DNA of 64,000 nt. It comes from Candidatus Hydrothermarchaeum profundi. GTDB taxonomy: Archaea; Hydrothermarchaeota; Hydrothermarchaeia; Hydrothermarchaeales; Hydrothermarchaeaceae. Under the pieces are notes generated by a model, which made no database searches, was not told the DNA's origin, and saw nothing but the letters and a program-made list of their open reading frames with translations. Both the position numbers and the translations under genes were made by a program. Positions within the stretch are counted from its first letter, which is position 1; each line of letters begins with the position of its first letter. Of the stretch, positions 20,499 through 51,070 are shown piece by piece. Location of the stretch: the NCBI GenBank assembly GCA_002011125.2, contig MTMF02000009.1, forward strand, positions 84,332-148,331, written 5' to 3'.

Positions 20499-20559
20499 AT
20501 TTGAAACCTTAAATTATATATAAGACACCACAAAATATGAACTTCGCCGAGGATGACGC

Positions 20560-28488: not shown

Positions 28489-29730
28489 ATGGCTGAAGAC
28501 AAAAATAGCGAAATGTCAAAGTATCTTCTTAATAGAGTCAGAGAGTTAGAAAAAGAATGCGTTCAATTATCTAACGAGAATAATAGACTTAGAACGAGTT
28601 ATGCGCAGAGAATAAAATGGCTTGAAGAAAAGAAACGCCAGCTAGAAAATGAGAAGATACAGATGGAGAGGGAAATCAGGCGGTTAAGAAGCGAGATAGA
28701 ACGGATGCGGACAACTCCACTAATTATTGGAAATATCGTGGATATCCTTGAGAATGGAAAAGTTGTAGTTAAGAGTTCATCTGGGCCTCATTTCGTCGTA
28801 AATACCTCTCAGTTCATAGATAGGGAAAACCTTGTTGCAGGCGCAAGAGTCGCTCTTAACCAACAATCCTTAGCCGTAGTAGATATTCTCCCTGTAGAAA
28901 AAGACCCCGCGGTACTCGCTATGGAAATTGAGAAGAAGCCAAATGTAACCTATAATGATATAGGAGGACTGCATGCCCAGATCGAAGAGATAAAAGAAAC
29001 TGTTGAACTCCCACTGCTAAGACCCGACGCTTTCAAAAAAGTGGGGATAGAACCGCCTAAAGGTGTGTTACTTTACGGTCCTCCAGGTACTGGAAAGACC
29101 CTTCTTGCTAAAGCTGTTGCTAGCGAGACCAACTCTGTTTTCATTAAACTCATAGGCTCAGAACTGGTGAGGAAGTATATAGGGGAAGGTGCAAGACTAG
29201 TTAGGGAACTATTTAAAATGGCACGTGAGCAGGCTCCGAGTATTATCTTTGTTGATGAGCTGGACGCTATAGGAGCCAAGCGTTTGGACTCCGCTACCAG
29301 CGGAGATCGGGAAGTACAGCGCACTTTAATGCAGTTCCTAGCAGAAATGGATGGTTTTGATCCTAGAGGTGACGTGAAGATAATAGGTGCAACGAACAGG
29401 CCGGATATACTCGACCCAGCCATACTGAGACCGGGGAGATTTGACAGATTAATTGAGATACCCCTCCCAGACAAAGAAAGTAGAAAAGAGATATTCAAGA
29501 TCCATACTCGAGCAATGAATCTTACAGACGATATCGACATAGATGCTTTAGCGGTGCGGACCGAAGGGTCTTCAGGAGCTGATATAAAGGCAATTTGCAC
29601 CGAAGCGGGTATGTTCGCTATAAGAGAAGGAAGGGAGGAAGTATCCTTCTTTGATTTTGAGAGAGCTGTAATGAAAGTTCTGAGCAAATACGAAGAGGGT
29701 AAGAGAGAAGCCGGTGTAATGTATACCTGA
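28489..29730 (+). CDS. pan: Proteasome-activating nucleotidase
   Basis: Coiled coil, OB domain, AAA+ Walker A (GPPGTGKT), Walker B (IIFVDELD) and a C-terminal hydrophobic-Tyr-X tail (MYT). Confidence 0.95.
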
Positions 29731-35773: not shown

Positions 35774-36960
35774 AAAGTCCTTTCGTCCTTGATCAAGAAG
35801 TTGGTTTAGAATTTTTCATAACAGATACAAAAGGAATTGGAGGAAAATTAAGAACTATAGTTGAAGATTTCTGCGTAGAGGAAATTCCCAAAAAAATTGA
35901 AGAAGACACAAATGGAGAGTATACCTATTTTATTCTAGAGAAAAAAAACTGGGAAACCCATAGGGCAATAAAAGCTATCTCTCGCGCTTTACGCGTTTCA
36001 TATAAGCGCTTTGGTTTTGCCGGAACAAAAGATAAAAGAGCATTAAGTAGGCAGTGGGTGTCCGCATGGCGCATTGATATTAAGAAGCTAGAGGAAATCA
36101 ACATCAAAGATATAAAACTATATAATTTTAAAAAAGCAAGAGGAAGAATAACTCTAGGAAATGCCTTTGGAAATCGTTTTATGATAACTATAAGAGATAT
36201 AAATTTAAGTGGAGAAGAAGTTGATAAGAGACTGCGCGAAACCTCTGCCGAACTAACTGAGAAAGGTATACCAAATTACTTTGGCTATCAAAGATTTGGA
36301 ATAATAAGACCAAATACCCATTTGGTCGGTAGAGAGATAGTTAAAGGAAATCTTAAAGAAGCTGTTATTAATTATCTTGGAAAACCATGCGAGGGGGAGA
36401 GGGAGGACGCATATCGCGCGAGACAATTTCTTGAAGATACCCTAGACTTTAAGAAGGCTCTTAAGCTATTTCCAAAGCGGCTGGATTACGAAAGATCAAT
36501 GTTAGATGCCCTTTTAAAGAATCCTAATGACTATGCAGGCGCACTAAGGAGACTTCCAAAAAAACTTAGATGGATGCTCGTTCATGCCTATCAAAGCTAT
36601 CTTTTTAACAAGATTTTAAGCAAAATAATAGAGAGAGGATTAAACATAAAAGAGCGAAAGATACCTCTCTTCGGGTATGAAAGCTCCTTTAGTGATGGAG
36701 AACAAGGAGAAATAGAAAAATCTGTGCTTAAAGAAGAAGATGTTAAACCAGGTGATTTTCTAATTAAATCTCTTCCAGAACTTAGTTCTAAAGGAAGCTT
36801 AAGAGATGCTTGCATTAGTACTTCATCAAAGTTCTATGTAGGCGATGATGAAATAAATAAACAAAGACTTAAAGCAACCTTAGAATTCATGCTACCCCCT
36901 GGGTGTTATGCGACAGTAGTTTTAAGAGAATTCATGAAGATTGACCCAATAAATTACTGA
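35770..36960 (+). CDS. truD: tRNA pseudouridine synthase TruD/Pus7
   Basis: FGFAGTKDKRA catalytic motif and NYFGYQRFG. ATGA overlap with pth2. Confidence 0.9.
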   Translation: MKSPFVLDQEVGLEFFITDTKGIGGKLRTIVEDFCVEEIPKKIEEDTNGEYTYFILEKKNWETHRAIKAISRALRVSYKRFGFAGTKDKRALSRQWVSAWRIDIKKLEEINIKDIKLYNFKKARGRITLGNAFGNRFMITIRDINLSGEEVDKRLRETSAELTEKGIPNYFGYQRFGIIRPNTHLVGREIVKGNLKEAVINYLGKPCEGEREDAYRARQFLEDTLDFKKALKLFPKRLDYERSMLDALLKNPNDYAGALRRLPKKLRWMLVHAYQSYLFNKILSKIIERGLNIKERKIPLFGYESSFSDGEQGEIEKSVLKEEDVKPGDFLIKSLPELSSKGSLRDACISTSSKFYVGDDEINKQRLKATLEFMLPPGCYATVVLREFMKIDPINY

Positions 36961-37924
36961 TCTCCCTTTCTATTATCTCAAATGGGTCTTGAAGAGTATT
37001 AATAATAGAAGTTGCCTTATTTCTTATTTCATTTTTAGAATCCCAGAGGGATTCCACTAAACTCGCTATTTCCTTTATTTCAGTAGAATGATAGAGGAGT
37101 CCCTTTTCAATCAAAAATCTATCAACACCAAGCAGATCCTGTGGATAGAAGGAAATCGTAGGCGTTCCCAACAAAGCCGATTCTCTGTTCATAGTACCTC
37201 CCCCACTTAGGACAACCCTCGAATAATAAATAAGGCTCAAAGTATCTATATTTCTAAGATTAAGTACTCCTTTATATTCAATGTCCCGGGGAATAACAAC
37301 GACTTGCAAGCTTTTCTCTTGTAGAGTCTCTATAAGCTTCTCGGTAATCTTTCTACCGTAGAAATAGGAGGCTAAATAAGGCTCAGGCCTGATAAGCACA
37401 TAATCATCAACTCCATACTTCTCAAGAATTTTTTCATCTGGCTTAAAATTCCTGATATGAGCCAGCTCACAAAGCCCATTAAACTCTACAATATTCTCCG
37501 GGATAGCCCCCTGAGATATTAGCTTTTTTTTATCTACAGCAAATGGTACGACTATTTTATCGCACAAAGACAAAGAAAGTCTGTTCTGCTTCTCCGCGTA
37601 CTCATTGTCTACAACATGAATTGCAGGTACTCCTAAACCAAAGGCGACTCTAGGTAACTCTACGCTTTGCTTTGAAATCGCTGCTTTTATATTTTCCTTG
37701 GACACTATTTCAGCAAGTCCTGAGATTCTCTTAGCGCTCTCTATCAGTTTCTTCTTAGGATCATTCCCCCCATGAAACCCGATACATATATACTCGATGC
37801 CATGTGAATCAAGAAGATCTGTTAATGACCCAAATTCACGAGTAGTGACTAATACTTCATGCCTTTTAATAAAATCCTTAAAGAAAAGAATATGCGGCTG
37901 ATTTGTAATATCCACCCAAATCAT
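36932..37924 (-). CDS. DUF354-family protein (glycosyltransferase/epimerase-like fold)
   Basis: MIWVDITNQPHILFFKDFIKR... matches the DUF354 N-terminal pattern as I recall it. Confidence 0.55.
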   Translation of the reverse strand: MIWVDITNQPHILFFKDFIKRHEVLVTTREFGSLTDLLDSHGIEYICIGFHGGNDPKKKLIESAKRISGLAEIVSKENIKAAISKQSVELPRVAFGLGVPAIHVVDNEYAEKQNRLSLSLCDKIVVPFAVDKKKLISQGAIPENIVEFNGLCELAHIRNFKPDEKILEKYGVDDYVLIRPEPYLASYFYGRKITEKLIETLQEKSLQVVVIPRDIEYKGVLNLRNIDTLSLIYYSRVVLSGGGTMNRESALLGTPTISFYPQDLLGVDRFLIEKGLLYHSTEIKEIASLVESLWDSKNEIRNKATSIINTLQDPFEIIEREISNLLGQSS

Positions 37925-37978
37925 ATAACGCGAGTTGGTTCAGTATTAGATATAAATTTTCTCTCTTTATGCTTTATT

Positions 37979-39226
37979 CTAAAAAATACCTTTTCTAGCA
38001 ATATTTAGCATTTCAAAAGAAAAAATTAGCGCAGAAAGAAAGAAGACTAACGCAGAGGCTTTCATAATTGGTACAGAGATTAATGAGCCTAAAAAAAGTC
38101 CTACGATACCAATATTAGCTAGTATAAATATAACCCACGAAAGCCTCTCACTGTAAAGTTCTTTAAAGTTAGAAGGAAGAGACTTAACTTTCTTCTCGGC
38201 CATATTGGCCCAAGTCAACATCGGTATAAGGTGATACATTCCACCGAATATCGTCAAACTTACCCAGCCAAGCATCGCTAGATGAACATGTCCAAAGGAT
38301 AGCTCTCTTAAAATATCTCGATTGAGAAGCATTACAAGACCTACTATTACGACTGCAAGGAAGTATAATATCGCCGCTTCAAGGAACTTCGCCTCTGTGG
38401 ATGTAACCTTCATTTTCATTTTTGATTCTCCAGAGGCTGTTTTGTACATGAGATAGGTAAAAAGAAGCGTTCCTATTATTACTATAATGGCAAAGATAAT
38501 TGTAGTTACTCCAAACCCTGTTGCTATAAGACTTAAAAAGAAACCTACTACTCCAGCGTTGAAGACCCAGAAGACCTGCCTTACTAGACGTTCACTATAA
38601 ATATCCTTCATAACCACCATAGGAAGCATCCAAGACATAGCCCCAATAATGATAACTGATATCCAGCCGAGTGCACCAATATGAGCATGAGAAGCTATTA
38701 GCTTAGAACTTGAAGGTAATATTCTCCAAAGCTCAAGGATTTCCATCCTCATTAGCACTATTATTAACCCTAACGTGCTACCGAGAACTAAGTATACTAC
38801 CGACATAACGTAAAACCAGAGAGTGAACGTCCATGCTCTCTTGTTTTTTACTGTGAGAAAAATATTAGCAGCAAAAGCGTAAACCGCTATAAGTAAAAAA
38901 AGAGAAAAAAGTAGGGTAAAAGGCTCAAACCCGTATGTTGTAATCCCAACTACAAAGCCTATTAGCCCCAGATTTAACATCCAGAAAGATATTTCTCCAA
39001 GAATCTTACTATAAAGATCAGCGCTCGTAAACGTCGGTACCTGCTGATACATTGTGCCGATTATAGTCGCTGAAACGAATCCAAGTAAGGCAATATGTGC
39101 ATGAGATACAATAACATCTCTGGTAATAGGGAATACTTGAAAAAGCATCCCTATACCTAGCGTACACGCCGCTAAGAAATAGACTACAGCTGTAATTAGA
39201 AATCTGAGGCTAAGCTTTCTAGTCAT
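37979..39226 (-). CDS. 12-TM membrane protein made of three tandem 4-TM repeats, each with an HxH motif (possibly distant NnrS / haem-copper-oxidase-like); last gene of the nor operon
   Basis: 415 aa. SHAHIALLGFVS (H42/H44), SHAHIGALGWIS (H180/H182) and GHVHLAMLGWVS (H313/H315) are each followed about 25 residues later by YS(K/E)(I/R)L and a small-residue helix (NLGLIGF / NAGVVGF / NIGIVGLF). The start lies 13 nt downstream of the preceding mini-ORF. Confidence 0.6.
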   Translation of the reverse strand: MTRKLSLRFLITAVVYFLAACTLGIGMLFQVFPITRDVIVSHAHIALLGFVSATIIGTMYQQVPTFTSADLYSKILGEISFWMLNLGLIGFVVGITTYGFEPFTLLFSLFLLIAVYAFAANIFLTVKNKRAWTFTLWFYVMSVVYLVLGSTLGLIIVLMRMEILELWRILPSSSKLIASHAHIGALGWISVIIIGAMSWMLPMVVMKDIYSERLVRQVFWVFNAGVVGFFLSLIATGFGVTTIIFAIIVIIGTLLFTYLMYKTASGESKMKMKVTSTEAKFLEAAILYFLAVVIVGLVMLLNRDILRELSFGHVHLAMLGWVSLTIFGGMYHLIPMLTWANMAEKKVKSLPSNFKELYSERLSWVIFILANIGIVGLFLGSLISVPIMKASALVFFLSALIFSFEMLNIARKGIF

Positions 39227-39239
39227 ATTTTACTCCTAT

Positions 39240-39356
39240 TCACCCATGTATGAACATTGGCAAACATCGGACACAAACATAGTCTTCTTTACCCTTATAG
39301 TAGAATTTAAGGATTTTTACTTCATCATCCGTTCTCTTACAGTTTGAACATTCCAT
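39240..39356 (-). CDS. 38-aa CxxC...CxxC zinc-ribbon mini-protein, not in the ORF track
   Basis: My translation: MECSNCKRTDDEVKILKFYYKGKEDYVCVRCLPMFIHG. It fits the operon exactly, 19 nt after the cupin stop and 13 nt before the next start. Confidence 0.5.
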   Translation of the reverse strand: MECSNCKRTDDEVKILKFYYKGKEDYVCVRCLPMFIHG

Positions 39357-39375
39357 TTCATATCCTCCTTTTTGT

Positions 39376-39690
39376 TTATATTGGTGGAGCAATACCCACC
39401 AGTACCTTCATCCTCGTTTTAGCTCTAATACCGTGTGGTTCACTTACAGGGGATACAAGAAGAGAGCCCCTCTTGGCGGGTATATCCTTTTCCCCACCAA
39501 TAAAAGAGCCTTCGCCTTCTAGTACGCAGAGAAATACTTCTGAATCCACATCGTGAGAGTGCACCGGAAGCTCTTGCCCTGGCTCGAAACAAAATAGGAT
39601 AAGTCTCATATTGTAGGAGTCATGGACAAAGTCCAGCCAATACTTATCCTTTTTGAATTTTGCTACTTCTTCGAGTTCTATTTTTTTCAT
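39376..39690 (-). CDS. Metal-binding cupin-domain protein
   Basis: Cupin motif 1 is PVHSHDVDSEVFLCVLEGEG (HxH-x4-E). Motif 2 is GSLLVSPVSEPHGI. It starts 13 nt downstream of norB. Confidence 0.8.
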   Translation of the reverse strand: MKKIELEEVAKFKKDKYWLDFVHDSYNMRLILFCFEPGQELPVHSHDVDSEVFLCVLEGEGSFIGGEKDIPAKRGSLLVSPVSEPHGIRAKTRMKVLVGIAPPI

Positions 39691-39703
39691 TAAATCACCT
39701 GCA

Positions 39704-41059
39704 TTACATCTTGGGTCTTAACGTCAGTAGGTCTGTCACAGTTCTCAAGACTCCTATAAAGAACACTATCCCTATGCCTATGACGGCCTTGAACCAGAAC
39801 TGCATCTGAGCTTGTGCTGTCATATATCCAAGTCCTAGCACTCTTTCAAGGTAAGTCTGTAAAATGCCCGCTCCACTGAAAGCTAGTCCTATTCCAGTCA
39901 TGCTGAATATCATTATCCAAAAGCCTAGTTTACCTCTACTATCATCGTAGATTCTGTATCCTTTAATCTCCGGTATAGCGAAGTAGAAGAACATCAAATT
40001 AAACAAAGCATATGCCCCAAAGAAAGCCAAGTGCCCATGTGCTACCGTAACTTGGCTACCGTGAGTATAGTAGTTAATCTGAGGTAAAGTATGCATGAAA
40101 CCCCAAATACCTGCTCCAATGAAGTGGTATAAAGCTCCACCTCCCATGTAGGTCCAAGCTAGAGGGTTGACAAGCTCCATCTTCCTCTCTCTAGTCCACT
40201 TAAATACATCGATCACCATAAGCAGAATTGGCAAAGGCTCCAATGCGCTGAAGACTCCTCCAACATATAGCCAGTACCGAGGGGCTCCAAGCCAATAGTA
40301 GTGATGACCCGTTCCTGCAATACCTGTAAATAAGAATAAACCGATCTCTATGTAGAGCCATTTTTCAACAACCTCTTTGTTAACTCCAGTCAACTTTATA
40401 AGCGCAAATGCCGTGAGTGATGCCACCACAAGCTCCCAAGCGCCTTCAACCCATAGATGGATTACCCACCACCAGTAGTACCAGTCTATGGTTTCATTTT
40501 CATAAACAGGTATCCCGAAGAGATACAGTAAGGAAAGGGTAATCAGTCCGGTTAATAGCATTGCCTGGGTAACGGTCCAATGTTCGCCTTTTAAAATAGT
40601 CATCCCCACATTGAATAAGAAAATTAGTGCACCTACTACCACAAGTAAGTCTAGCCATCTAGGTATCTCAAGAAGAGGTCTACCCTGATTGAAATTGAAC
40701 CAGGGATTATCAATGGTTATTCCCATGCCATTTATGAATATAGTTACTAATGCAGTTACGCCGACTAATACTAACGCTGCGAGTTGTATATACGCAAGCT
40801 TCTTACTATAGAGTTCTCTTTTCGATTCCTCTGGGATCATGTAGTATGTAGCACCCATAAAACCCAGAAGAGACCAGAGCACCAATAGATTAGTATGAAA
40901 TGCTCTTGCGGTTGAGAATGGAAATACGTTCACTAGCCATTGAGGCAGAGTAAAGGCATAGTTTGTCGCTAGCCATAACCCCATTACCACTTGTAGAACG
41001 AACAATAATAAAGCGACAACAAAATAAGGATAGGCGATCTTTTGGCTTTCGTATTTCAT
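39704..41059 (-). CDS. norB: Nitric oxide reductase catalytic subunit NorB (cNOR type)
   Basis: 451 aa, 12 TM, collinear with bacterial NorB as I remember it. Motifs: WWWVIHLWVEGAWE (FeB His/Glu), GTGHHYYW (FeB His pair), AHGHLAFFGAY (haem b3 / haem b ligands), ARAFHTNLL (haem b ligand). Confidence 0.93.
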   Translation of the reverse strand: MKYESQKIAYPYFVVALLLFVLQVVMGLWLATNYAFTLPQWLVNVFPFSTARAFHTNLLVLWSLLGFMGATYYMIPEESKRELYSKKLAYIQLAALVLVGVTALVTIFINGMGITIDNPWFNFNQGRPLLEIPRWLDLLVVVGALIFLFNVGMTILKGEHWTVTQAMLLTGLITLSLLYLFGIPVYENETIDWYYWWWVIHLWVEGAWELVVASLTAFALIKLTGVNKEVVEKWLYIEIGLFLFTGIAGTGHHYYWLGAPRYWLYVGGVFSALEPLPILLMVIDVFKWTRERKMELVNPLAWTYMGGGALYHFIGAGIWGFMHTLPQINYYTHGSQVTVAHGHLAFFGAYALFNLMFFYFAIPEIKGYRIYDDSRGKLGFWIMIFSMTGIGLAFSGAGILQTYLERVLGLGYMTAQAQMQFWFKAVIGIGIVFFIGVLRTVTDLLTLRPKM

Positions 41060-41772
41060 TTCCTACCCTCCTTTAAATTTGCAATATATTCAGCTATGGC
41101 TTCTGCCTCTTCTTCCGAGACTCTTTGTGCTGGCATAGTTGCATCGGGATTAATCGATCTTGGGTCAAGTATATAGTTCTTAATGTAATCTTTATCTCGC
41201 TTCACTTGCTCAAACTCTGGTCCCTGTAGTCCTCCTACACCTCCTAGAGAATGGCATGCTAAGCATCCAGCTTCCTTTATAAGAGCTGCTCCTTTGCTCA
41301 TTCCTACTCCGGCTACAAGAATATTTACCCCTGGCTTATATTTTTGGTCTTGGGGTGGCCAATTATTGTTTTCAATCTCGCTTACCCATTTCAAAAAGGC
41401 TATTAGATTCTTCACCTCTTCCTCTGTTAGGTCATATTTCGGCATTTTTCTCATCGAGTTAGCAAAGACCTTATCAGGACCTAAGACTCTAACTTTTATG
41501 CCCTCCGCTCCTAGTCTCCAATATGCTTTTGTCATGTCTGGAGCGTAATATCCTCCGAAACCAAGTATAGTATGGCAATCATTGCAGTTATACTTCTCCC
41601 ATACAGCTTTTCCAGCAATGACTTGAGGAGTTAATTGGTCTGCGTGGGTTAATGCTGTAACTTGTCTATGGGTATCTATAGTAAGACCTAAGAGTATCAT
41701 TGCTGAAATCGAAGTTCCTATTATAAATATCCATTTAGCTGCTTTGAATTCCATAATATCCCTCCTTCTCAT
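41056..41772 (-). CDS. norC: Nitric oxide reductase subunit NorC fused to a second class-I cytochrome c domain
   Basis: TM anchor, GKAVWEKYNCNDCHTILGFGGYYAPD and FLKWVSEIENNNWPP match NorC. Residues ~150-238 add a second CLACH with a candidate Met ligand in DATMPA. The probable true start is the ATG at 41754, preceded by AGGAGG. ATGA overlap with norB. Confidence 0.9.
   Translation of the reverse strand: MRRRDIMEFKAAKWIFIIGTSISAMILLGLTIDTHRQVTALTHADQLTPQVIAGKAVWEKYNCNDCHTILGFGGYYAPDMTKAYWRLGAEGIKVRVLGPDKVFANSMRKMPKYDLTEEEVKNLIAFLKWVSEIENNNWPPQDQKYKPGVNILVAGVGMSKGAALIKEAGCLACHSLGGVGGLQGPEFEQVKRDKDYIKNYILDPRSINPDATMPAQRVSEEEAEAIAEYIANLKEGRK
41761..41766 (-). promoter_or_regulatory. Shine-Dalgarno AGGAGG 6 nt upstream of the second in-frame ATG (41754) of norC
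   Basis: The minus-sense sequence reads ATGAGAAGGAGGGATATTATGGAATTC. Confidence 0.5.
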
Positions 41773-41904
41773 TCATATGTAATTTCCTGAAATTTATGAC
41801 TAAAATACATCTCTAATATAAAAAAATTACTACTATATATTAAATATTAATTATAATAAAAAGCTTTATTTTATAGATATTTACTAAATATTCTTAAAGT
41901 TAAT

Positions 41905-42960
41905 CTACCAGTGAAAGCGGACATTAGATCTAACATTTCTTACCCCTCCCATCAAACCATCAACATGTTTAATTGTAGATGGCAATCCAGTCTTTTCAAA
42001 GAACTTTTCCCATCCAATTCTAGCAATCCAATCCCCAATTCTTTCGTCTCTACGAGCATCTTCCACCCACGTATCGATTATATTCTTAACCGCAGTTACT
42101 ACCTCAGGCCACTGCGGAGGATTATTTGGGATATATGGTATGACCATTTTTGCCCATGCAGGACCTGCACCCGTATTTCCAGCCTTTCCGCCCACGACGA
42201 TTGCTACTCCCGCAGTTTCAGGCCTCATAGTTAGTGCCTCGCAAGTCATGGTACAGTATGCACAGTATATACATCTTTCAGGATTAATTTCTATGCTGTA
42301 TTTGCCTTTTGGTCTAATTGCAGCCGTAGGACAAACTCTTATAGTGGTGGGTCTTTCACAAGCTTTGACCTTTTCTTCATTTATAACAGGCGGCTCTCTA
42401 TACACTCCAACAACACCTATGTTTGAAGTAGAACCCTCGCCACATTGGTTAATGCAACCTGAAACCGAGATTTTGAGCTTAGCAGGATACACTTCATCGT
42501 CTGCAACAAATTCTCCATAAAGAGCATCGGAAATAGCCTTAGCGATACTTGGAGAATCAGCGGCTGCCAATTGACAATGTAACCATCCAGTACAACAAGT
42601 GGTCTGATGAAATCTTCTTCCAGTACCACCTACTGGCAAACCTAATTCGTTGAGTTTAGTTATTAATTCGCTAATTTTTTCTTTTTCTACGCCCACGAAC
42701 TCCACATGATTTCTAGTGGTAACCCTGAAATAACCCTCTGAATATTCATCCGCAAGATCGCATATTTTATAAAGAGTAGAAGTACTCACTCTAGCATTTG
42801 TTGGCATTCCTACTCTAACAGTATAACACTCTTCTCCACCCTTAGATACATGCTTATACACTCCCGCCTTAACAAATTCATGACCAACCCACTTTCCATA
42901 GTTACGCATTATAATAGGGGGTAATACTTCCTCAAATGGAGGTATCCCTACACCGGGCAT
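41905..42960 (-). CDS. dsrB: Dissimilatory-type sulfite reductase beta subunit
   Basis: N-terminus LPPIIMRNYGKWVGHEFVKAGVYKHV, sirohaem/[4Fe-4S] cysteines CTGWLHC ... CINQC, and an inserted ferredoxin domain CIYCAYCTMTC. Confidence 0.85.
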   Translation of the reverse strand: MPGVGIPPFEEVLPPIIMRNYGKWVGHEFVKAGVYKHVSKGGEECYTVRVGMPTNARVSTSTLYKICDLADEYSEGYFRVTTRNHVEFVGVEKEKISELITKLNELGLPVGGTGRRFHQTTCCTGWLHCQLAAADSPSIAKAISDALYGEFVADDEVYPAKLKISVSGCINQCGEGSTSNIGVVGVYREPPVINEEKVKACERPTTIRVCPTAAIRPKGKYSIEINPERCIYCAYCTMTCEALTMRPETAGVAIVVGGKAGNTGAGPAWAKMVIPYIPNNPPQWPEVVTAVKNIIDTWVEDARRDERIGDWIARIGWEKFFEKTGLPSTIKHVDGLMGGVRNVRSNVRFHW

Positions 42961-42961
42961 A

Positions 42962-44104
42962 CTACATCAGCTCCTCTATCTTCCAATGATAAAAGAGGTT
43001 TTCTCTCGGAATAGTGAGTTCCCGTATATCAACTTCTACTCCAACCAATTTTATGAACTTGTCAAATCCAAATCTATGGAGAAACTCTCCCATACGTTCT
43101 TTAGGCATAGCATTCTCATCATAGACTTCTACAACTCTCTCTATAACATCCAAAATTTCCTTGAATTTAGGAGGAGAAGACTTAATGAACGGAACAAGGA
43201 CCTTAGCCAATGTAGGGCCATATTTACTCCTGAACTTACCTCCAACCAGGATGGATGCCCCTCGATCTTCTCCAGGACTAATCGCAGGACACTGATTTAT
43301 GCAATACATGCAATGAACACAGGCTTCTGAATCTATTGTAAGCTCATTTCCATCCCAACTCATAGCCCAGGTGGGGCACTTAGAGCAAATATAGTTAATG
43401 TCCCCGCCATTTTCAACCCAGCTCACTAATTTTTCCTGATCTACTAATGGCGCATCTCTAAAAGTTCCACACACAAAGATCTCGCTTTTGTGGATTCCAA
43501 GCACACAATCATTTGGACAGCCCGCTGCTTTGGTTTTTATCTTATGAGGAAACCTAGGATACTGCATATCATCTAACAAGTGCTTTGTGAATGCATTTCT
43601 AAATCCAATGGTATCGAACAACGCTACGTCACATCTCGCAGGACCAATACAAGCTTTAACCGTTCGAAGAGTGACATCCGTAGAGCCTACATCCAGACCA
43701 ATTTTTTCCACTTCTTTTACGAGATCAGGAATCTTGTCATGCGGTACTTCGATAAGCTCTATATCGCTTGTAGTTGCAAATAGATGAATAAGGCTCCCAC
43801 TATATTTTTCAGCGATTCTACATAGCTCTCGGCACATTTTCGTGGTGAAAAAAAGTCCTGGTGGAGGGAATATGCGTACAACACTTGATTCCTTTATTAT
43901 ATCAGGTCTTTTGGATGCCCGGGCAATTATACCACTAGGTACTCCGAATATTGAAATGTACCCGCCTCCCCGCCACTGGCTAACTTTGTTCTGTAAGGCT
44001 TCTTCATACATCATTATAGAATACTGTGATTTCTTTAACTCCGATGCATGACTGGGCCATGGTCCTTTACAAAGCTCGTCTACAAGAGGAGTATTTAATG
44101 TCAT
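42962..44104 (-). CDS. dsrA: Dissimilatory-type sulfite reductase alpha subunit
   Basis: N-terminus TPLVDELCKGPWPSHASELKK, CIGPARC ... CPNDC, ferredoxin insert CVHCMYCINQCP. A 1-nt gap separates it from dsrB. Confidence 0.85.
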   Translation of the reverse strand: MTLNTPLVDELCKGPWPSHASELKKSQYSIMMYEEALQNKVSQWRGGGYISIFGVPSGIIARASKRPDIIKESSVVRIFPPPGLFFTTKMCRELCRIAEKYSGSLIHLFATTSDIELIEVPHDKIPDLVKEVEKIGLDVGSTDVTLRTVKACIGPARCDVALFDTIGFRNAFTKHLLDDMQYPRFPHKIKTKAAGCPNDCVLGIHKSEIFVCGTFRDAPLVDQEKLVSWVENGGDINYICSKCPTWAMSWDGNELTIDSEACVHCMYCINQCPAISPGEDRGASILVGGKFRSKYGPTLAKVLVPFIKSSPPKFKEILDVIERVVEVYDENAMPKERMGEFLHRFGFDKFIKLVGVEVDIRELTIPRENLFYHWKIEELM

Positions 44105-44154
44105 AATTCTTTCTCGACTTATTTACTCATTAATTTTTTAATAAAAATATATCT

Positions 44155-44198
44155 GCTTTAAATTAAATATAAATAAAGTAAAATCGCTTTAAATTAAA
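44155..44198. repeat. 13-nt direct repeat GCTTTAAATTAAA (x2, starts 31 nt apart) in the nrdG-dsrA intergenic region
   Basis: Copies at 44155-44167 and 44186-44198, about 50 and 80 nt upstream of the dsrA start codon (minus strand). Each contains a TTTAAA TATA-like core. Confidence 0.5.
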
Positions 44199-44259
44199 AT
44201 AGGTCTGTGCAGATTTTTTCACATCTGAATAAAAAGTAGCGTTTTTTAAACAGACTTTC

Positions 44260-44961
44260 TTATTTACCTCTAAAAAAAGCCTTATCTACATTGCAACTGA
44301 TGATCTTAACCAGCTTTTTCATATCATCATCGCTTAAAACTCTCGAATTCCTAAGGCCCCTGTCCATAGCAAATCTCGGCTGGAATTTCTGTAATACGTA
44401 AAGTTTAGCTCCTTTTATATCCCTCGAAATTTGCTCTATGTCCCTAAAAGTATGTAAAGACGGAACTACAGTCGTCCTAAACTCGTACTCTACTCCACTA
44501 TTCTTTATTAAATTTACACTCTCTCTAATCTTATCAACTTCGCATCGCACTCCACTGACTTCAGAATACTGCTCTTCATTTAAGGGAGCTTTTATGTCCA
44601 TAGCAATATAGTCCACAAGGTCTTTTTCCAAAAGCCTTCTAACAACTGTAGGGTTAGTGCCATTCGTATCGAGTTTTATCTTTATCCCCAGCTTCTTCAC
44701 TCTCTCGCAAAACTTATCTAGTCCTTTTTGTAATGTTGGCTCACCGCCTGTAATACAAACTCCATCTATAAAGTCATTATGCTTAGTGAGAAAATCAAAA
44801 ATTTCCTCTTCTTTAACATCTTCATACTGCTCAGGGTTAAGAACTAACCCATGATTATGGCAAAAAGGACATCGTAGGTTACATCCCGGAGTAAAGACTG
44901 TGCATGCTACCTTTCCATCCCAATCTAGGAAAGTTGTATCGATAAATCCTTTAATTTGCAT
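44260..44961 (-). CDS. nrdG: Anaerobic ribonucleotide reductase activating radical-SAM protein
   Basis: FTPGCNLRCPFCHN radical-SAM CxxxCxxC, ITGGEPT, and operon context with nrdD. Confidence 0.85.
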   Translation of the reverse strand: MQIKGFIDTTFLDWDGKVACTVFTPGCNLRCPFCHNHGLVLNPEQYEDVKEEEIFDFLTKHNDFIDGVCITGGEPTLQKGLDKFCERVKKLGIKIKLDTNGTNPTVVRRLLEKDLVDYIAMDIKAPLNEEQYSEVSGVRCEVDKIRESVNLIKNSGVEYEFRTTVVPSLHTFRDIEQISRDIKGAKLYVLQKFQPRFAMDRGLRNSRVLSDDDMKKLVKIISCNVDKAFFRGK

Positions 44962-45197
44962 ATCTCATTCCTGTCCGGTATCTCTCCTCTCCAAGAGCGA
45001 AGCTCATTATCATCATCATCAACTATAATTGTAGTAGGAGTTGAAAGCACGCTATAAAATGCTGCTTCTGCCATTCCATCCACGTCTTCAATGTTAAAGT
45101 ACTCAACCGCGATTCCATCTTTCTCTAAACTTTTACAGATTTCTTTCGTAGGGGGACATTTAGAGCAATTTTCTTGCCAGAATAGCTTGACTTTCAT
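44925..45197 (-). CDS. Glutaredoxin/NrdH-like small redoxin
   Basis: 90 aa with thioredoxin-fold pattern: KVKLFWQENCSKCPPTKE (CxxC) and STPTTII (cis-Pro region). Confidence 0.7.
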   Translation of the reverse strand: MKVKLFWQENCSKCPPTKEICKSLEKDGIAVEYFNIEDVDGMAEAAFYSVLSTPTTIIVDDDDNELRSWRGEIPDRNEICKLKDLSIQLS

Positions 45198-45259
45198 TTC
45201 AGTTACCTCCGAACTAAAAAATTTGAGGGACCTCTCCTCCTCTCAAAACGCGGGGTTAC

Positions 45260-45409
45260 TTAGTTGGCGAAATGCCATCTATCCCTCGCCATCCGGTCCC
45301 TCAGTTCTCCTATTTTTCCCTTATTCCAACCTTCTACTTTTGAGAAAAACCCTGTCACTCTCGTGATGTGTTCTACGTTTTCTGAGCCACAGCATGGACA
45401 TCTATCCAT
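45260..45409 (-). CDS. Stand-alone glycyl-radical / half-zinc-ribbon C-terminal module of NrdD (49 aa)
   Basis: MDRCPCCGSENVEHITRVTGFFSKVEGWNKGKIGELRDR carries the CPxCG half of the NrdD zinc site and the RVxG(Y/F) glycyl-radical motif with the WNxGKxxE tail. The tracked ORF starts at a GTG (45451), but the ATG at 45409 has a canonical SD. Confidence 0.7.
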   Translation of the reverse strand: MDRCPCCGSENVEHITRVTGFFSKVEGWNKGKIGELRDRMARDRWHFAN

Positions 45410-45415
45410 CTTTTT

Positions 45416-45422
45416 CACCTCC
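45416..45422 (-). promoter_or_regulatory. Shine-Dalgarno GGAGGTG between the nrdD stop (45426-45428) and the ATG at 45409
   Basis: The minus-sense sequence reads TAA-AAA-GGAGGTG-AAAAAG-ATG. The same GGAGGTGA element precedes the gene at 902. Confidence 0.55.
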
Positions 45423-45425
45423 TTT

Positions 45426-47366
45426 TTATAGTCCTCTTGTTGTACGCCCACAATCCAGGCAGCTTGTAAACTCGGGGCTAAATGCGATTTGATCGTTTTG
45501 AGTATTTTTGAATGTTTTAACTACAAAACTCGCTATTCCGCCTGGATCAGGCCTCGCTTCACCAATCCATATATGGGAGAGCGATCCTGCTTCTATTAAT
45601 GGGTGAAACATTCCTTCTTTTTTAACTCTCTCAATCGGGCTTAGAGGCACTCCAACGTTAAGATAAGTCGAATTAGTATAATAAATTTCATTTTTTTCAA
45701 CAATCCCTTTAACTACCGTAAGCGCTTCGTCTCTGTAATGCTCCAAATCTAGTTTGGCCATTCTATAAGCAGTACTTTCCGCGGGAGTTTGCTCTAGAAC
45801 AAATCTAAGTCCATATTTCTCCCCAAGTCTTTCTGCCTCTTTTTTCATGAAAGCAATCACTCTTAGACCAAATTTCAAGGCTTGATTTGACTCATGCATC
45901 TCCTCTCCAGTATGGTATTGTACGAGCTCGTTTAAACCCACCATCCCAAAGAGGAAAGTTGCTCTGTGCAATCTATAATATGGTTCTCCATCTCTATTCA
46001 TAGAGAGCAAGCTTAGGGGGCCCTGATTTTTCATGTCCAATAATTTCTTAATAAAGTTCCTCTTGTAGACATGTGCTCTAGCCATAAGCTCCATTCTTTC
46101 AGTTATTATCTCGAAGAGCCTCTCATCACTTCCGCCCGCTTCATACGCCACTCTCGGGAGGTTGAGGGTTACATTTTGCATGGCTGAATAGCGCATCTTC
46201 CATGGAGTTTTTGCATCCTCAAAATCTGATTTCTCAAGCTTAAAGGAAAGCCGGCAGCACTCACTTATCTTTGCTGTTTCACCCCGGTCGAATACGTAAT
46301 AAGTGTTACCTTTATCAGAAGAAACATCAGAGATTAGGTAAAGGAAATCCTCGTATCCTTCCGTTTTGAATAATCTCTCTGTTATGTGTACCTGAGGTTT
46401 GGGGAAAAAGAAGGGTCTTCCAAGGCCATCACCTTCTTTGTATACTTTGAAAAGCGCTATAGCAAATTTCTGAGATTCTTCGATATAATCCTCATAGTTA
46501 TTCCCCGTAAATTTTCCTCCAGGACCTATAGCAGGAACTCCAATAAAGTGTTTTGGTATTTCCCAATATATATTCAAATCAGAGAATATAGACTGCCCCC
46601 CACGAGCCACGCTTTGCTGAGCAAACTCAAAGATAAGCATCTGTGCTAACTGTTCTAGTTTCTCATTATCCACTCCTACAAGATAAGGTGCAAAAAATAG
46701 GTTTACTGCGTCCCATCCGATAGCTCCCGCAAAATTGCCTTGAAGTGCTGCAGAAAACTTTATCATTTGCCCTATTAGAACTTCAGGATGTTTAGCTGGC
46801 TTTGATATAGATATTGCGTTAGGGAGGCTTAAACCAAACTTTTTTACATATTCTAGCGAGTTTCCAGAACAGTATGGCCTATCTATCATTCCTAAATCAT
46901 GTAAATGGAAATCCCCTTTCTCATGAGCTACAGCAATTTCTGGAGGAAATATTTTTAAAAGTGCATATTGCTTCTTTATTGACTCTGCCAAGGTTAGATT
47001 CGTAGCTTCAGGGCCATGAGGTACATTGGCGTTTTCTCTATTTCGTGATATAAGCATTTGATCTACATCATATATTGGTAACCCTAACCGGGTATGCTGT
47101 TTTCTCTCCTCTTCCAATCCATATTCTATGAGTTTCCCATTTACAACTTCACGTATTAGAGGAGCCGTGATAAACTTTATCTTAGATTTAATTATGGTTT
47201 CTTCGACTTCCTTACTTATTTTTTCAGCAAGTTCGGGGGATATGGTGGTTTCTCTAAGAAGTGCTTCCACTATACTTTTTCTGTCCCATTTAACTACATC
47301 CTCTCTTGAAACCTTAACAAAGAGGGCAGCATCGGTTGAATCGTTTGAAACTATCATTCCAATCAC
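45426..47366 (-). CDS. nrdD: Anaerobic (class III) ribonucleoside-triphosphate reductase, large part lacking the glycyl-radical C-terminus
   Basis: 646 aa with an ATP-cone-like N-terminus and GDFHLHDLG. It ends right after the first zinc CxxC (SCLDCGRTTRGL-stop). Confidence 0.9.
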   Translation of the reverse strand: MIGMIVSNDSTDAALFVKVSREDVVKWDRKSIVEALLRETTISPELAEKISKEVEETIIKSKIKFITAPLIREVVNGKLIEYGLEEERKQHTRLGLPIYDVDQMLISRNRENANVPHGPEATNLTLAESIKKQYALLKIFPPEIAVAHEKGDFHLHDLGMIDRPYCSGNSLEYVKKFGLSLPNAISISKPAKHPEVLIGQMIKFSAALQGNFAGAIGWDAVNLFFAPYLVGVDNEKLEQLAQMLIFEFAQQSVARGGQSIFSDLNIYWEIPKHFIGVPAIGPGGKFTGNNYEDYIEESQKFAIALFKVYKEGDGLGRPFFFPKPQVHITERLFKTEGYEDFLYLISDVSSDKGNTYYVFDRGETAKISECCRLSFKLEKSDFEDAKTPWKMRYSAMQNVTLNLPRVAYEAGGSDERLFEIITERMELMARAHVYKRNFIKKLLDMKNQGPLSLLSMNRDGEPYYRLHRATFLFGMVGLNELVQYHTGEEMHESNQALKFGLRVIAFMKKEAERLGEKYGLRFVLEQTPAESTAYRMAKLDLEHYRDEALTVVKGIVEKNEIYYTNSTYLNVGVPLSPIERVKKEGMFHPLIEAGSLSHIWIGEARPDPGGIASFVVKTFKNTQNDQIAFSPEFTSCLDCGRTTRGL

Positions 47367-47505
47367 TTCGGTATTCTAACAAAATATCATTTATGTGTTA
47401 ATGTAATAAACAAATTTTGATTATATAAGCTTTTCTATGTGATGATGTTAACATATTACTGCATATTTATTTATAAAATTAACTAAATTTCCTTGGAAGT
47501 AAAAT

Positions 47506-47523
47506 ACTATTTTTAAAAATAGT
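47506..47523. promoter_or_regulatory. Perfect 18-bp palindrome ACTATTTTTAAAAATAGT upstream of the nrdD operon
   Basis: Read directly. It lies about 140 nt upstream of the nrdD start and about 50 nt downstream of the stop of the 47574..48287 gene, so it could be an operator or a bidirectional terminator element. Confidence 0.3.
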
Positions 47524-47573
47524 TTGAAAGTCTAACATATGAGCTACCCAAAAACACATTTAATAAAAAATTT

Positions 47574-48287
47574 TTATTCTCCTTCCAACTTATACTTCAA
47601 AAAAAGTTCTTTTAACCGAGGTATCAACTCACAATTCTTTTTAATGTACAATACATATCGGGGGTGATAGATATTTCTCTCTCTATCCCGCATTATAAAA
47701 GGTTCAAAAGGAAAAGTTAAATGGGCTTCTTTTACTTCTTTATCTTCGCCTATATCAATCATTTTAAAAGACACATCTTCTTTAATATCGCAATAAATAG
47801 GAGGAACTACTTTTTCTTTTCCCTTGGTGCTAGCAATTTTGGGGGCTGCTTCTTCATCCCAAGCTTTCTTAAACTCGGGCCTAAGTATAAAATAGATTTT
47901 TTTAGTCTTAGAACTCTCTATGGCTGGCTTTAAAAGTTTTTCATACATCTCAGGTCTCCTAAATCCAAGGGGAGTATTGAACCACCACATCTCCCCCCTA
48001 TTTCTAAGAGCAAATTCTTCGCCTTCTTTCAGTAAATCTGATGGCCCAATCAGTTCAATTTCCAGCTCTTTGCCTAGTCGCTCTTCAATTCTTAACAATT
48101 TTTTAGATTCTTCTTCATCTCTTACAGCCTGATGAAGAGCATGCAATGCTAGTAATAGCAAGATAAGGGATATAAGATATTTTTCAGGTAGCATTCCTAC
48201 GTGATGTAGGATTATCCCTAAAAAACTAGCTGCCACTAAAATAAGTACATCCAGATTCTTTTCTAGATTAGAAAGCCATTTTATCAT
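47574..48287 (-). CDS. Hypothetical membrane-anchored protein (2 N-terminal TM helices)
   Basis: A long ORF with a hydrophobic N-terminus. No motif recognised. Confidence 0.5.
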   Translation of the reverse strand: MIKWLSNLEKNLDVLILVAASFLGIILHHVGMLPEKYLISLILLLLALHALHQAVRDEEESKKLLRIEERLGKELEIELIGPSDLLKEGEEFALRNRGEMWWFNTPLGFRRPEMYEKLLKPAIESSKTKKIYFILRPEFKKAWDEEAAPKIASTKGKEKVVPPIYCDIKEDVSFKMIDIGEDKEVKEAHLTFPFEPFIMRDRERNIYHPRYVLYIKKNCELIPRLKELFLKYKLEGE

Positions 48288-48335
48288 ACTATGAGTATTG
48301 TTTCCCTTTACATAAATATGATTACATAAAATCCA

Positions 48336-49010
48336 CTAAAACATTAGGGACAACCATTTTGTAAAGAAGTCTGTGGAGCTTTCCTTTATATAAGTCAAAT
48401 GCTCCGAGGTCTTAGATAGCCCTCTTACTCTAATTCCACTTTTATCACTCCAAGCATTTATCATCTCATCTGTCATTTCTAAATGAAATTGAAGCGCATA
48501 AATGTTGCCTACCTTAAATGCCTGATTTTTATATAGAGTTGACGTTGCAAGCCGTATTGCTTTTTTAGGCAGATCAAAAGTATCACCGTGCCATTGAAAT
48601 ACTGGAAAACTTTGATGAAAACTACGAAAGAGAAAATCTTTTTGGCCTTCTTTCGTTAGTCTAACTCGATACCACCCTATTTCTTTTTTATGCCCGGCAT
48701 AGACTTTCGCCCCAAATGCTTTAGCAATAAGCTGGCACCCTAGACAAATACCAAGTAAAGGTTTACCTTGTAAAAAAGCTTCTTTAATTATCGAAATCTC
48801 TTCTTTCAAAAAAGGATATTTTTTATCATCATACACCCCCATAGGTCCCCCCAGAATGAGTATACCTCTATAATTATCAAGAGAGGGGATCTTCTCTCCT
48901 TTGAATATTTTTACATAGCGATAATTAAAACCTTCATCTACTATTATGTCTTCCAGTATACCCAGAGTTTCTCCATTAGCATTTTGAAGAGCTAGAATCT
49001 TATAAGCCAC
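48336..49010 (-). CDS. Class I glutamine amidotransferase-like protein
   Basis: ILGGPMGVYDD, nucleophile elbow GICLGCQL, and HLE near the C-terminus. Confidence 0.8.
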   Translation of the reverse strand: MAYKILALQNANGETLGILEDIIVDEGFNYRYVKIFKGEKIPSLDNYRGILILGGPMGVYDDKKYPFLKEEISIIKEAFLQGKPLLGICLGCQLIAKAFGAKVYAGHKKEIGWYRVRLTKEGQKDFLFRSFHQSFPVFQWHGDTFDLPKKAIRLATSTLYKNQAFKVGNIYALQFHLEMTDEMINAWSDKSGIRVRGLSKTSEHLTYIKESSTDFFTKWLSLMF

Positions 49011-49072
49011 TTCTAACCCTCTATAACCTACAACTTGGAACCGTTTGCGGAAAAACAGCGGTATGAGTAAGC

Positions 49073-49354
49073 TTATTTCTTTTTTAACAGCTCGTTGAGT
49101 TGCTTTTCTTGGACATATCCTTCAACTTTTATATCGACGTTTTCTATACCTTTGATCTCTTTTATCTTCTCTTTAATAGCAAAAGCAAGCTGTGTACCCA
49201 ACGGGCAGTAGGGGCTTGAGGGAATGAAAGTTAAACTGACATTACCATCTTTGACGGAGAGGTCCTTTATTAATCCCATATCATAAACATTCATATTGGT
49301 ATGTGGGTCCATAACCTTTTTGAGACTTTGAATAACTTCATCCTCAGAAACCAT
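49073..49354 (-). CDS. DUF59/MIP18 (SufT-like) Fe-S assembly-associated protein
   Basis: VIQSLKKVMDPHTNMNVYDMGLI ... PSSPYCPLG pattern. Confidence 0.8.
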   Translation of the reverse strand: MVSEDEVIQSLKKVMDPHTNMNVYDMGLIKDLSVKDGNVSLTFIPSSPYCPLGTQLAFAIKEKIKEIKGIENVDIKVEGYVQEKQLNELLKKK

Positions 49355-49363
49355 ATTGTCACC

Positions 49364-49588
49364 TCACTTTTTTTTAAGTTCTTTTAACTTTTCTTCTCCT
49401 ACGCATTTCTCTGCAAATGAGCACCACTGAACACATGAACTAAGATCCCGGTATACAACTCCCCCACATTCACATTCAGCTTTTGTCTCGTCAGTAAAGA
49501 TCTCAACATCCTTGCCGCATTTTGGACAAGGCAACAATTCTATAGTTGGCCTCAATACACCAGAACTGCCTGGACATCTCATCTCCAT
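49364..49588 (-). CDS. Small cysteine-rich (8 Cys) zinc-ribbon-like protein
   Basis: CPGS...CPKCG...CECGG...CVQWC...C. Its stop lies 9 nt upstream of the DUF59 gene start. Confidence 0.5.
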   Translation of the reverse strand: MEMRCPGSSGVLRPTIELLPCPKCGKDVEIFTDETKAECECGGVVYRDLSSCVQWCSFAEKCVGEEKLKELKKK

Positions 49589-50539: not shown

Positions 50540-51067
50540 TTAAAACTCTATGCCCTCCTGAGCCTCAATACCTTTTTCATACGGATGCTTCACAAAACAC
50601 ATTTCTGTAACCAAATCAGCCTTCTCGATAAACTCTTTTGGTGCCCTTCTACCAGTTAACACTACGACAGTCTCCTCTGGGATTTCTTCAAGCAAGGCTA
50701 GAACCTCTTCTTTTTTAACGATATTAAAGTGGGCTGCGAGATTAATTTCATCTAATATCAAAAGTCTAGGTTTCATCTTCAGGATTTTTCTAGCAAATTT
50801 AAGTCCTTCCGAAGCAAGTTCAAAGTCTTTTGGTGACGGATTCCTAAAATCAATAAACTCCTTACGCCCAAACTGATAAATTTCGTATTCTGGAGCTAGT
50901 CTTTCTTTTATCTTATATTCACCTACAAATTTCCTACCTTTCATAAACTGGACTATTATGACTTTATATCCATGCCCTACCGCCCTTAAGGCCATACCTA
51001 ATGCATTGGTAGTTTTTCCTTCCCCTTCACCGGTATAAAGATAAATTAAGCCTCTTCTCATATTCAA
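50540..51067 (-). CDS. cobO: Cob(I)yrinic acid a,c-diamide adenosyltransferase
   Basis: GLIYLYTGEGEGKTTNALGMALRAVGHGYKVIIVQFMKG, LLILDEINLA. Confidence 0.9.
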   Translation of the reverse strand: MNMRRGLIYLYTGEGEGKTTNALGMALRAVGHGYKVIIVQFMKGRKFVGEYKIKERLAPEYEIYQFGRKEFIDFRNPSPKDFELASEGLKFARKILKMKPRLLILDEINLAAHFNIVKKEEVLALLEEIPEETVVVLTGRRAPKEFIEKADLVTEMCFVKHPYEKGIEAQEGIEF

Positions 51068-51070
51068 GCC

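Follow-up and report, generated by a model that had tools for sequence, protein, structure and literature searches.

The genes described here lie in a 64-kb stretch of DNA (64,000 nucleotides; hereafter termed the window) from contig MTMF02000009.1 of Candidatus Hydrothermarchaeum profundi, an archaeon of the Hydrothermarchaeota, and comprise the two genes of a nitric oxide (NO) reductase (NOR), norC and norB, followed by genes for a cupin, a short zinc ribbon and a membrane protein related to subunit I of the haem-copper oxidases (HCOs). All five are located on the minus strand. The norC gene (41772-41056; open reading frame (ORF) of 238 aa) encodes a cytochrome c with two CxxCH motifs and an N-terminal membrane anchor, and norB (41059-39704; 451 aa) encodes an HCO subunit; the genes that follow encode a small cytoplasmic cupin (39690-39376; 104 aa), a Cys4 zinc ribbon (39356-39240; 38 aa) and a 12-helix membrane protein of the HCO homology (HCOH) type (39226-37979; 415 aa). 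An earlier interpretation made from the letters alone (the sequence-only reading) had described five co-directional ORFs with operon-like spacing, and the coordinates bear this out: norC shares 4 nt with norB, and the remaining gaps measure 13, 19 and 13 nt. Shine-Dalgarno-like motifs (GGAGG, GGTGA or TAGGAG) precede the cupin, ribbon and membrane protein genes, and we infer that the five genes are co-transcribed. A second in-frame ATG within norC, at position 41754, would yield a product of 232 aa and is probably the true start, because a GGAGG motif lies 6 nt upstream of it and the bacterial orthologues are 232-235 aa in length.

NorB was matched with 392 bits to the solved cytochrome c-dependent NOR (cNOR) 3o0r_B and with 383 bits to 4xyd_A, far above the 163 bits to the quinol-dependent NOR (qNOR) 3ayf, and a separate membrane-anchored NorC is encoded upstream, in agreement with the two-subunit cNOR that had been proposed. 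No O2-reducing HCO was matched at E <= 1e-5. Alignment to Pseudomonas aeruginosa NorB (3o0r_B) also upheld the claim of a full FeB and haem ligand set: the haem and FeB histidines H60, H207, H258, H259, H347 and H349 (P. aeruginosa numbering) are identical, the FeB glutamate E211 is retained, as are E215 and E280 close to it, and the motifs HLWVEGAWEL and SALEPLP are present. The Ca2+ ligand Glu135 of the P. aeruginosa enzyme is replaced by Pro, whereas E138 and NorC Tyr73 are kept. Pro is found at this position in all 119 closest NorB homologues (GRPLLEIP in 111 and GKPLLEIP in 8); it is a trait of the clade and not a family-defining feature, and the Ca site that bridges the haems may have another architecture in this clade. 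Residues 4-142 of NorC match the solved NorC structures (4xyd_B, 3o0r_C; 82 bits) and keep the CxxCH motif, the Met ligand region and the GxGxYxAP loop, residues 164-234 match the cytochrome c-552 5aur_A, and Pfam finds Cytochrom_C twice and NorB_cytochrome_c-like. The product is therefore a complete NorC that carries a second cytochrome c domain, of the c552 type, as a fusion. Judged from its sequence, NorCB is a cNOR with predicted NO reductase activity, in which electrons would enter the additional c552-like domain, pass to the haem c of NorC and on to haem b of NorB, and reach the haem b3/FeB centre, where two NO would be reduced to N2O.

Pfam and NCBIfam scans covered 49 ORFs of the window: of the 64 ORFs with 110 aa or more, 45 were included, and to these were added three smaller genes and the zinc ribbon (38 aa, from its start); most of the long ORFs outside this set overlap scanned genes on the opposite strand. 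Among these 49 ORFs no NorQ (MoxR-type AAA protein) or NorD (VWA protein) was found, as the sequence-only reading had noted, and the sole AAA protein is a proteasome ATPase (28489-29730). The same scans found no ccm, nir or nos genes, and tRNA and Rfam scans of the window gave no matches. The closest homologues of NorB number in the thousands at 65-72% identity, and those that are named come from bacterial metagenome-assembled genomes (MAGs) of Zixibacteria, Nitrospirota, Thermodesulfovibrionales, Deferrimicrobium and Deltaproteobacteria. At four bacterial loci whose NorB belongs to this clade (66-68% identity), NorB is encoded together with the same dihaem NorC (232-235 aa), and none of the four encodes NorQ or NorD within 7-10 kb. 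cNORs without NorQ and NorD occur in several clades (Appelgren and Adelroth, 2025; PMC12067857); these NorQD-independent enzymes carry hydrophilic residues at the K-pathway-analogue positions I244 and F290 of P. aeruginosa and lose acidic NorD-docking residues equivalent to D220 and E222 of P. denitrificans (PMC12067857). In the alignment to 3o0r_B, the I244 and F290 positions are occupied in window NorB by E238 and D284. Its N227 and E229 stand at P. aeruginosa D233 and E235, which are equated with P. denitrificans D220 and E222 from the D-x-E spacing alone; on this mapping, one of the two docking acidic residues is lost (Asp to Asn227). The lack of norQ and norD is thus the expected state for the clade of window NorB, because four clade-mate loci lack both genes and the K-analogue residues are hydrophilic; the generalization that a cNOR normally needs NorQ and NorD does not apply to this clade.

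The window NorCB is accordingly unexceptional among the NorQD-independent cNORs, a kind already known. It resembles such enzymes, including NorCBH of Thermus thermophilus and those of clades IV-VII (PMC12067857), in possessing NorC and NorB with full ligands and no norQ or norD, in the hydrophilic plug positions and, if the mapping from the D-x-E spacing holds, in the loss of the NorD-docking Asp. It differs from them in the extra cytochrome c fused to NorC, in having no NorH, in the Glu135-to-Pro replacement and in its archaeal host. The hydrophilic plug positions would permit FeB to enter without an ATP-driven chaperone.

These observations bear on the proposal that the cupin, ribbon and membrane protein form a maturation system that inserts FeB or haem in the place of NorQ and NorD, the membrane protein serving as a subunit-I-like scaffold or mimic. 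The genes are packed tightly directly after norB, both soluble proteins carry metal-binding motifs, the closest relative locus (L001) keeps the module beside another NOR-like enzyme, and the FeB content of a NorQD-less cNOR has been reported to depend on the host, in a study that regards unknown chaperones as conceivable (PMC12067857). However, the module is common in genomes and loci with no nearby NOR, including about 20 loci that hold the ribbon and membrane protein pair; neither of these two proteins occurs in any of the four NorQD-less bacterial loci of the NorB clade, and a cupin was found near norCB in only one of them, as a distant homologue 6.4 kb away; and the hydrophilic K-analogue pair of NorB is associated with chaperone-free insertion. 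We regard a maturation role as very unlikely. The sequence-only reading had suggested a different maturation or NO-handling module in the place of NorQD, and its maturation half was not borne out.

The archaeal chromosomal setting was confirmed by archaeal-type alanyl-tRNA synthetase (AlaRS), ribosomal protein L10/P0, DtdA, two PurP genes and form III RuBisCO, and the window also encodes FtsZ, the anaerobic ribonucleotide reductase (RNR) proteins NrdD and NrdG, another RNR large subunit, CofC and the proteasome ATPase. The best named matches of AlaRS belong to Candidatus Hydrothermarchaeales, Hydrothermarchaeaceae and Hydrothermarchaeota (61-63% identity), and the best match without a name reaches 69%, which marks the host as a divergent archaeon of the Hydrothermarchaeota type. 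The view of archaeal NORs as qNORs is outdated: cNORs are sparsely distributed in Archaea (PMC11214002), Hydrothermarchaeota MAGs contain Nor without NirS/K, with Sat-Apr-DsrABC in one subgroup (PMC6759336), and Table S1 of the latter study gives adjacent norB and norC gene identifiers, and no norQ or norD, for a Hydrothermarchaeota genome. NorBC had therefore already been listed in this phylum before the present analysis.

The sequence-only reading had also considered the operon a candidate for inter-domain transfer followed by remodelling. Per-gene GC content, GC content at third codon positions (GC3) and codon-choice likelihood placed norB about 1.7 standard deviations high in GC3 and norC at the mean; both genes lie within about 1.7 standard deviations of the window genes, and a recent horizontal transfer of norCB was rejected for lack of a compositional signal. 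The sole clear outliers in composition are a transposase gene and its neighbour (101-2257). A neighbour-joining tree of NorB was rooted with the NOR-like protein of L001 and included 117 other matches besides window NorB and its relative P0002. Window NorB pairs with P0002 (72% identity) outside all 117 of these bacterial-type matches, which share a mean identity of 77% among themselves and 68% with window NorB, and this placement speaks against nesting within a bacterial subclade. The P0002 locus contains the archaeal-type families DUF1512 and PF01877, and P0002 is probably an archaeal sequence. An inter-domain transfer of norCB, in either direction, is possible, and the mostly bacterial distribution of the clade makes it likely that one took place at some time.

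In the membrane protein, the Pfam model COX1 (PF00115) was matched three times, each time over profile positions of approximately 274-403, i.e. the C-terminal third (89.8 bits, above the cut-off). The triple repeat noticed in the sequence-only reading proved to be real (pairwise BLASTP E values of 1e-16 to 1e-25): the protein consists of three 4-helix repeats that are 29-34% identical, each resembling helices IX-XII of oxidase subunit I. Every repeat contains an HxH motif (H42/H44, H180/H182 and H313/H315), and an additional histidine is found at H332. Among 13 homologues with 31-64% identity to the window protein, six of these histidines (H42, H180, H182, H313, H315 and H332) never vary, and the seventh, H44, is kept in at least 90%. 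An AlphaFold model was obtained with a pLDDT of 93.1 and a pTM of 0.92. Helices II, VI and X each carry one of the HxH motifs, close to the outer face of the membrane protein; in whole-chain Foldseek comparisons the model reached TM scores of 0.82 to CcoN of the cbb3 oxidase (3mk7_A) and 0.69 to 3o0r_B. The protein shares with cbb3 CcoN and NorB the whole-chain fold and an HxH in register with helix X, but differs in its threefold repeat, in the lack of the helix VII HH pair (its sequence contains no HH dipeptide) and of an FeB Glu, and in an identity of only about 15%. As judged from the model, it is a subunit I fold without a CuB/FeB site, because the HH pair is absent, and hence without a binuclear centre. 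A catalytic HCO subunit I was therefore rejected as its identity, given three partial COX1 matches only and no HH pair. The three HxH motifs may ligate b-type haem, and by symmetry the protein could hold as many as three bis-His haems.

When 1.84 billion representatives were searched with a profile, 177 clusters were matched at E <= 1e-30. The exact seven-histidine pattern was found in 18 of the top 151 representatives, a few more being fragments or one-residue variants; most of the others in this set keep three histidines and have Lys at the H332 position. These features fit membership in the HCO homology class, within which the protein is unusual in keeping six or seven histidines. This class was reportedly described by Pei, Li, Kinch and Grishin in 2014 as three-unit, 12-helix proteins with no catalytic CuB/FeB site, most families of which are said to keep two histidines and one haem. 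The window protein resembles the class in its three 4-helix units like helices IX-XII, in the lack of a CuB/FeB site and in a gene context of DUF2249 and of denitrification or NO detoxification; it differs from what is reported for the class in having HxH in all three units and a seventh histidine, rather than two, in units that are 29-34% identical to one another, and in a dedicated 38-aa ribbon partner. The 2014 study by Pei and colleagues (Protein Sci 23:1220) appears among the references of PMC11218638 and PMC4602095. A literature search on pseudo-threefold symmetry or triplication of subunit I found nothing relevant.

NnrS, a 12-helix membrane protein that belongs to NO regulons, contains haem and copper. 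The window protein is like NnrS (PF05940) in size, helix count, shared gene clusters and similar fusions, and hhalign indicated remote homology between the two families over one unit (probability 91%); it differs in its histidine pattern and in the lack of a Pfam match at E <= 0.01, for which reason membership in NnrS itself was rejected.

Proteins of approximately 165-171 aa with a single HCO-like unit (HxH, the C-terminal third of COX1 and a weak DUF2871 match) were observed as well, e.g., at 9974-10489 of L031, and similarly in L033, L035, L110, L113, L131, L133, L135, L142-L145 and L150, and further in L153, L156, L159, L163, L165 and L167. They lie 2-5 kb from genes for cbb3-type oxidases in Nitrosomonadales, Gallionellaceae, Nitrotoga and many metagenome contigs, and could form trimers that mimic subunit I.

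The cupin belongs to Pfam Cupin_2 (PF07883; 40 bits against a cut-off of 27.2, E = 3e-10), and its metal site is intact, as had been claimed, with His/His/Glu/His supplied by HxH-x4-E (HSHDVDSE) and the histidine of PHG. Homologues with 34-42% identity were found beside HCOH and DUF59 genes or near norCB in four bacterial loci (L041, L090, L099 and L100). The 38-aa ribbon ORF was confirmed as a real gene by its conservation in 15 of 17 related archaeal loci, in which it usually lies directly upstream of the membrane protein gene; its motif CxNC...CxxCLPxxIHG is invariant. A genome scan identified relatives of the membrane protein with 34-44% identity in Hydrothermarchaeota, a 'Methanobacteriota archaeon' and Candidatus Pyrohabitans. 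The ribbon and membrane protein pair occurs without NorB in the Hydrothermarchaeota loci L004, L005 and L010-L023 and recurs in the metagenome loci L094-L097 and L103; in about 20 loci of the Hydrothermarchaeota type, no NOR was found within 8-10 kb of the pair, where the contig reaches that far, and a NorB or NOR-like enzyme is encoded in only two of the 17 archaeal loci, the window and L001. The module of ribbon, cupin and membrane protein is accordingly independent of NOR and native to the archaeal lineage, because the pair recurs in loci without NorB.

The neighbours of the membrane protein gene are recurrent. In the archaeal loci they include DUF59 (adjacent in 7), a ScdA_N/DUF1858-like 60-aa protein (6), a multihaem cytochrome c of approximately 490 aa (6), a CGGC protein (5) and a Cys-rich protein of approximately 80 aa (5). 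In bacterial loci, the three-histidine subfamily is found in arrays of the form DUF2249-HCOH-DUF59, which Crp/Fnr, hemerythrin, ScdA_N and NnrS often accompany, and DUF59 is adjacent in 17 loci of this subfamily; L041, L099 and L100 also hold a cupin that is 35-42% identical to the window cupin, and NnrS shares gene clusters with an HCOH protein in L041, L121 and L138. Fusions were identified between HCOH and DUF59 (P0228, P0235, P0236 and P0288) and among ScdA_N, an NnrS-like core and DUF1858 (P0273), and point to a predicted physical interaction on the cytoplasmic face. DUF2249 proteins are induced during denitrification in haloarchaea (Haloferax) and have been tied to HCO homologues (PMC11218638), and those of Thermus have been implicated in nitrate respiration. 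In bacterial loci of the NorCB clade, a further set of genes was observed: norCB is flanked by genes for a 62-aa ferredoxin, a hemerythrin, a protoglobin/PsiE protein and a CopD/cytochrome b5 membrane protein in L090 (11400-13199) and L091 (8576-9252), which constitutes another recurring, unstudied accessory set.

Another explanation for the membrane protein is that it is an electron-input module, a multihaem b protein that would replace bc1 and carry electrons across the membrane from the quinol pool, or from the cytoplasmic ribbon and cupin, to periplasmic c-type cytochromes, here the cytochrome c domain fused to NorC. The HxH motifs near the outer face, where the haems of HCOs lie, would suit this role, as would the gene for a c-type cytochrome directly upstream in the Pyrohabitans-type loci L015, L020-L022, L094 and L097 and nearby in L001 and L014; furthermore, the window operon begins with a dihaem NorC, and the scanned 64 kb contain no bc1 or other obvious donor. 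In contrast, no adjacent cytochrome c was present among the checked genes of most loci (those of archaeal type A and all bacterial DUF2249-HCOH-DUF59 loci), bacterial members of the NorCB clade work without the membrane protein, and the fusions are to the cytoplasmic DUF59 and ScdA_N/DUF1858, with none to cytochromes or quinol-binding modules. Electron input thus appears rather unlikely.

The operon is part of a 12.7-kb run of 15 co-directional genes (36932-49588, minus strand). In order of transcription, these encode a 74-aa Cys-rich protein, DUF59, GATase, a 237-aa protein, NrdD, a thioredoxin-like protein, NrdG, DsrA, DsrB, NorC, NorB, the cupin, the ribbon, the HCOH protein and DUF354. Both ends of the run (DUF354 excepted) are usual members of Hydrothermarchaeota HCOH clusters, including, some 10 kb upstream of the membrane protein gene and on the same strand, the 74-aa Cys-rich protein (49364-49588) and the DUF59/FeS_assembly_P protein (49073-49354), which are 50-57% and 52-63% identical, respectively, to proteins that flank the membrane protein gene in L004, L010, L012, L014 and L023. 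It looks as if the middle genes had been inserted into a once-contiguous HCOH cluster. A homologue of the 237-aa protein is kept near the membrane protein gene in L001 (72% identity) and L014 (46%).

The genes directly upstream of norC are those of a sulfite reductase, an unusual pairing with NO reductase genes: dsrA (42962-44104, minus strand; 380 aa) scored 333 bits, below the NCBIfam cut-off of 393, and dsrB (41905-42960, minus strand; 351 aa) scored 389 bits against a cut-off of 341, and both translations contain Cx5C...Cx3C. The window contains no dsrC, dsrD, dsrMK, apr or sat. The dsrAB genes are probably a separate transcription unit from the norC operon; the 132-nt AT-rich spacer between dsrB and norC (41773-41904, minus strand), as read from its letters, contains T runs and TATA-like boxes and probably holds a terminator and the operon's own promoter, respectively.

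The closest relative of the locus, L001, holds the only close relative of the membrane protein (P0122; 64% identity). Exact look-up and a single-protein metagenome scan found no closer relatives, and a profile-based metagenome scan found none above 44% identity. L001 keeps NrdD-Trx-NrdG and the cupin, ribbon and membrane protein genes (cupin 82% and ribbon 92% identical), and its slot between NrdG and the cupin is occupied by an oppositely oriented cluster of a cytochrome c, a 544-aa HCO and UbiA. This cluster (3964-7116, minus strand) encodes an HCO with the NOR motifs HYWVEG, GHHYFW and SHGHE and a C-terminal extension, which is 32% (tblastn) or 33% (tree alignment) identical to window NorB, together with a single-haem protein of 221 aa that resembles NorC and ends in a C-terminal helix, and a prenyltransferase of the UbiA family.

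The arrangement can be read as incidental, norCB, perhaps with dsrAB, having entered a variable slot beside a resident gene pair, so that the two units would be transcribed and used separately. The different and oppositely oriented NOR-like cluster in the same slot of L001 is consistent with such an event, as are the Cys-rich and DUF59 genes 10 kb away, which suggest an insertion into a once-contiguous cluster. On the other hand, the 13-19-nt gaps contain ribosome-binding motifs, so that a promoter would hardly fit between norB and the cupin gene, the wider context of the family is NO-related, and the occurrence of two different NOR-type enzymes beside one module in the same neighbourhood of two genomes argues for selection rather than chance. 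We consider mere adjacency improbable.

The reading that we put forward, with about even confidence, is that the locus joins NorCB to an uncharacterised NO/iron-stress module that is not a maturation kit. Two units of different origin would have been brought together, norC-norB as the first and the cupin, ribbon and membrane protein as the second, and placing the second behind norCB would give one NO-induced transcript for both NO removal and the handling of damage. The membrane protein would play an NnrS-like role, in which it protects or restores iron and Fe-S centres exposed to NO stress while the small cytoplasmic proteins dock at its inner face. This role is suggested because relatives of the protein adjoin or are fused to DUF59, ScdA_N/DUF1858, DUF2249, hemerythrin, NnrS, cupin and Crp/Fnr. 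Several points weigh against this reading. Direct adjacency of the second unit to a NOR is found in only two genomes of one lineage, and the Hydrothermarchaeota clusters include no unambiguously NO-specific gene; their DUF59, CGGC and Cys-rich proteins could serve in general iron or redox handling just as well; and the multihaem cytochrome c of approximately 490 aa directly upstream in Pyrohabitans-type loci favours electron transfer. Moreover, a NorQD-less cNOR expressed in E. coli contained no FeB (PMC12067857), and a host factor for FeB insertion into cNORs of this kind is possible.

A bolder proposal, which we hold to be improbable as well, is that the seven-histidine protein is a near-symmetric, three-haem relative of subunit I that stands near the 4-helix ancestor and represents a pre-catalytic stage of HCOs and NORs, acting with the ribbon and cupin as a redox partner of NOR. 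In Hydrothermarchaeota-like archaea, such a partner could serve, for example, in the reduction or export of iron-nitrosyl species.

Several features elsewhere in the window were also recorded. The compositional outliers are a DDE transposase gene (101-886, plus strand) and a gene with a metallo-beta-lactamase fold (902-2257, plus strand), whose GC3 values of 0.48 and 0.55 are the highest in the window (mean 0.35); the region is likely a recent insertion. Tandem paralogues of PurP, the formate-dependent FAICAR synthetase, are located at 19371-21645 (plus strand), the first being far more divergent (255 versus 499 bits to the same model). The class III anaerobic RNR consists of NrdD and NrdG (44260-44961, minus strand), and the RNR regions lie at 45426-47366 and 50540-53161 (minus strand); the second RNR large subunit, whose gene adjoins one for a corrinoid adenosyltransferase, may be a B12-dependent class II enzyme.

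The genes downstream of norCB thus belong to a recognised, uncharacterised class, of which they are a histidine-rich and unusually symmetric form with a dedicated ribbon; their putative function is suggested by the context. For surveys of denitrification, the locus means that the absence of norQD from a member of this large cNOR clade points neither to a defect nor to remodelling, and that the NorQD-independent clade extends into Archaea. The operon ties a cNOR to the uncharacterised HCO homology/NnrS-like class, and the NorCB-cupin-ribbon-HCOH arrangement offers a compact system in which haem binding and the protection of iron centres from NO can be tested. Finally, the subfamily with three HxH motifs provides a specimen for the origin of the 12-helix oxidase fold from a 4-helix unit.

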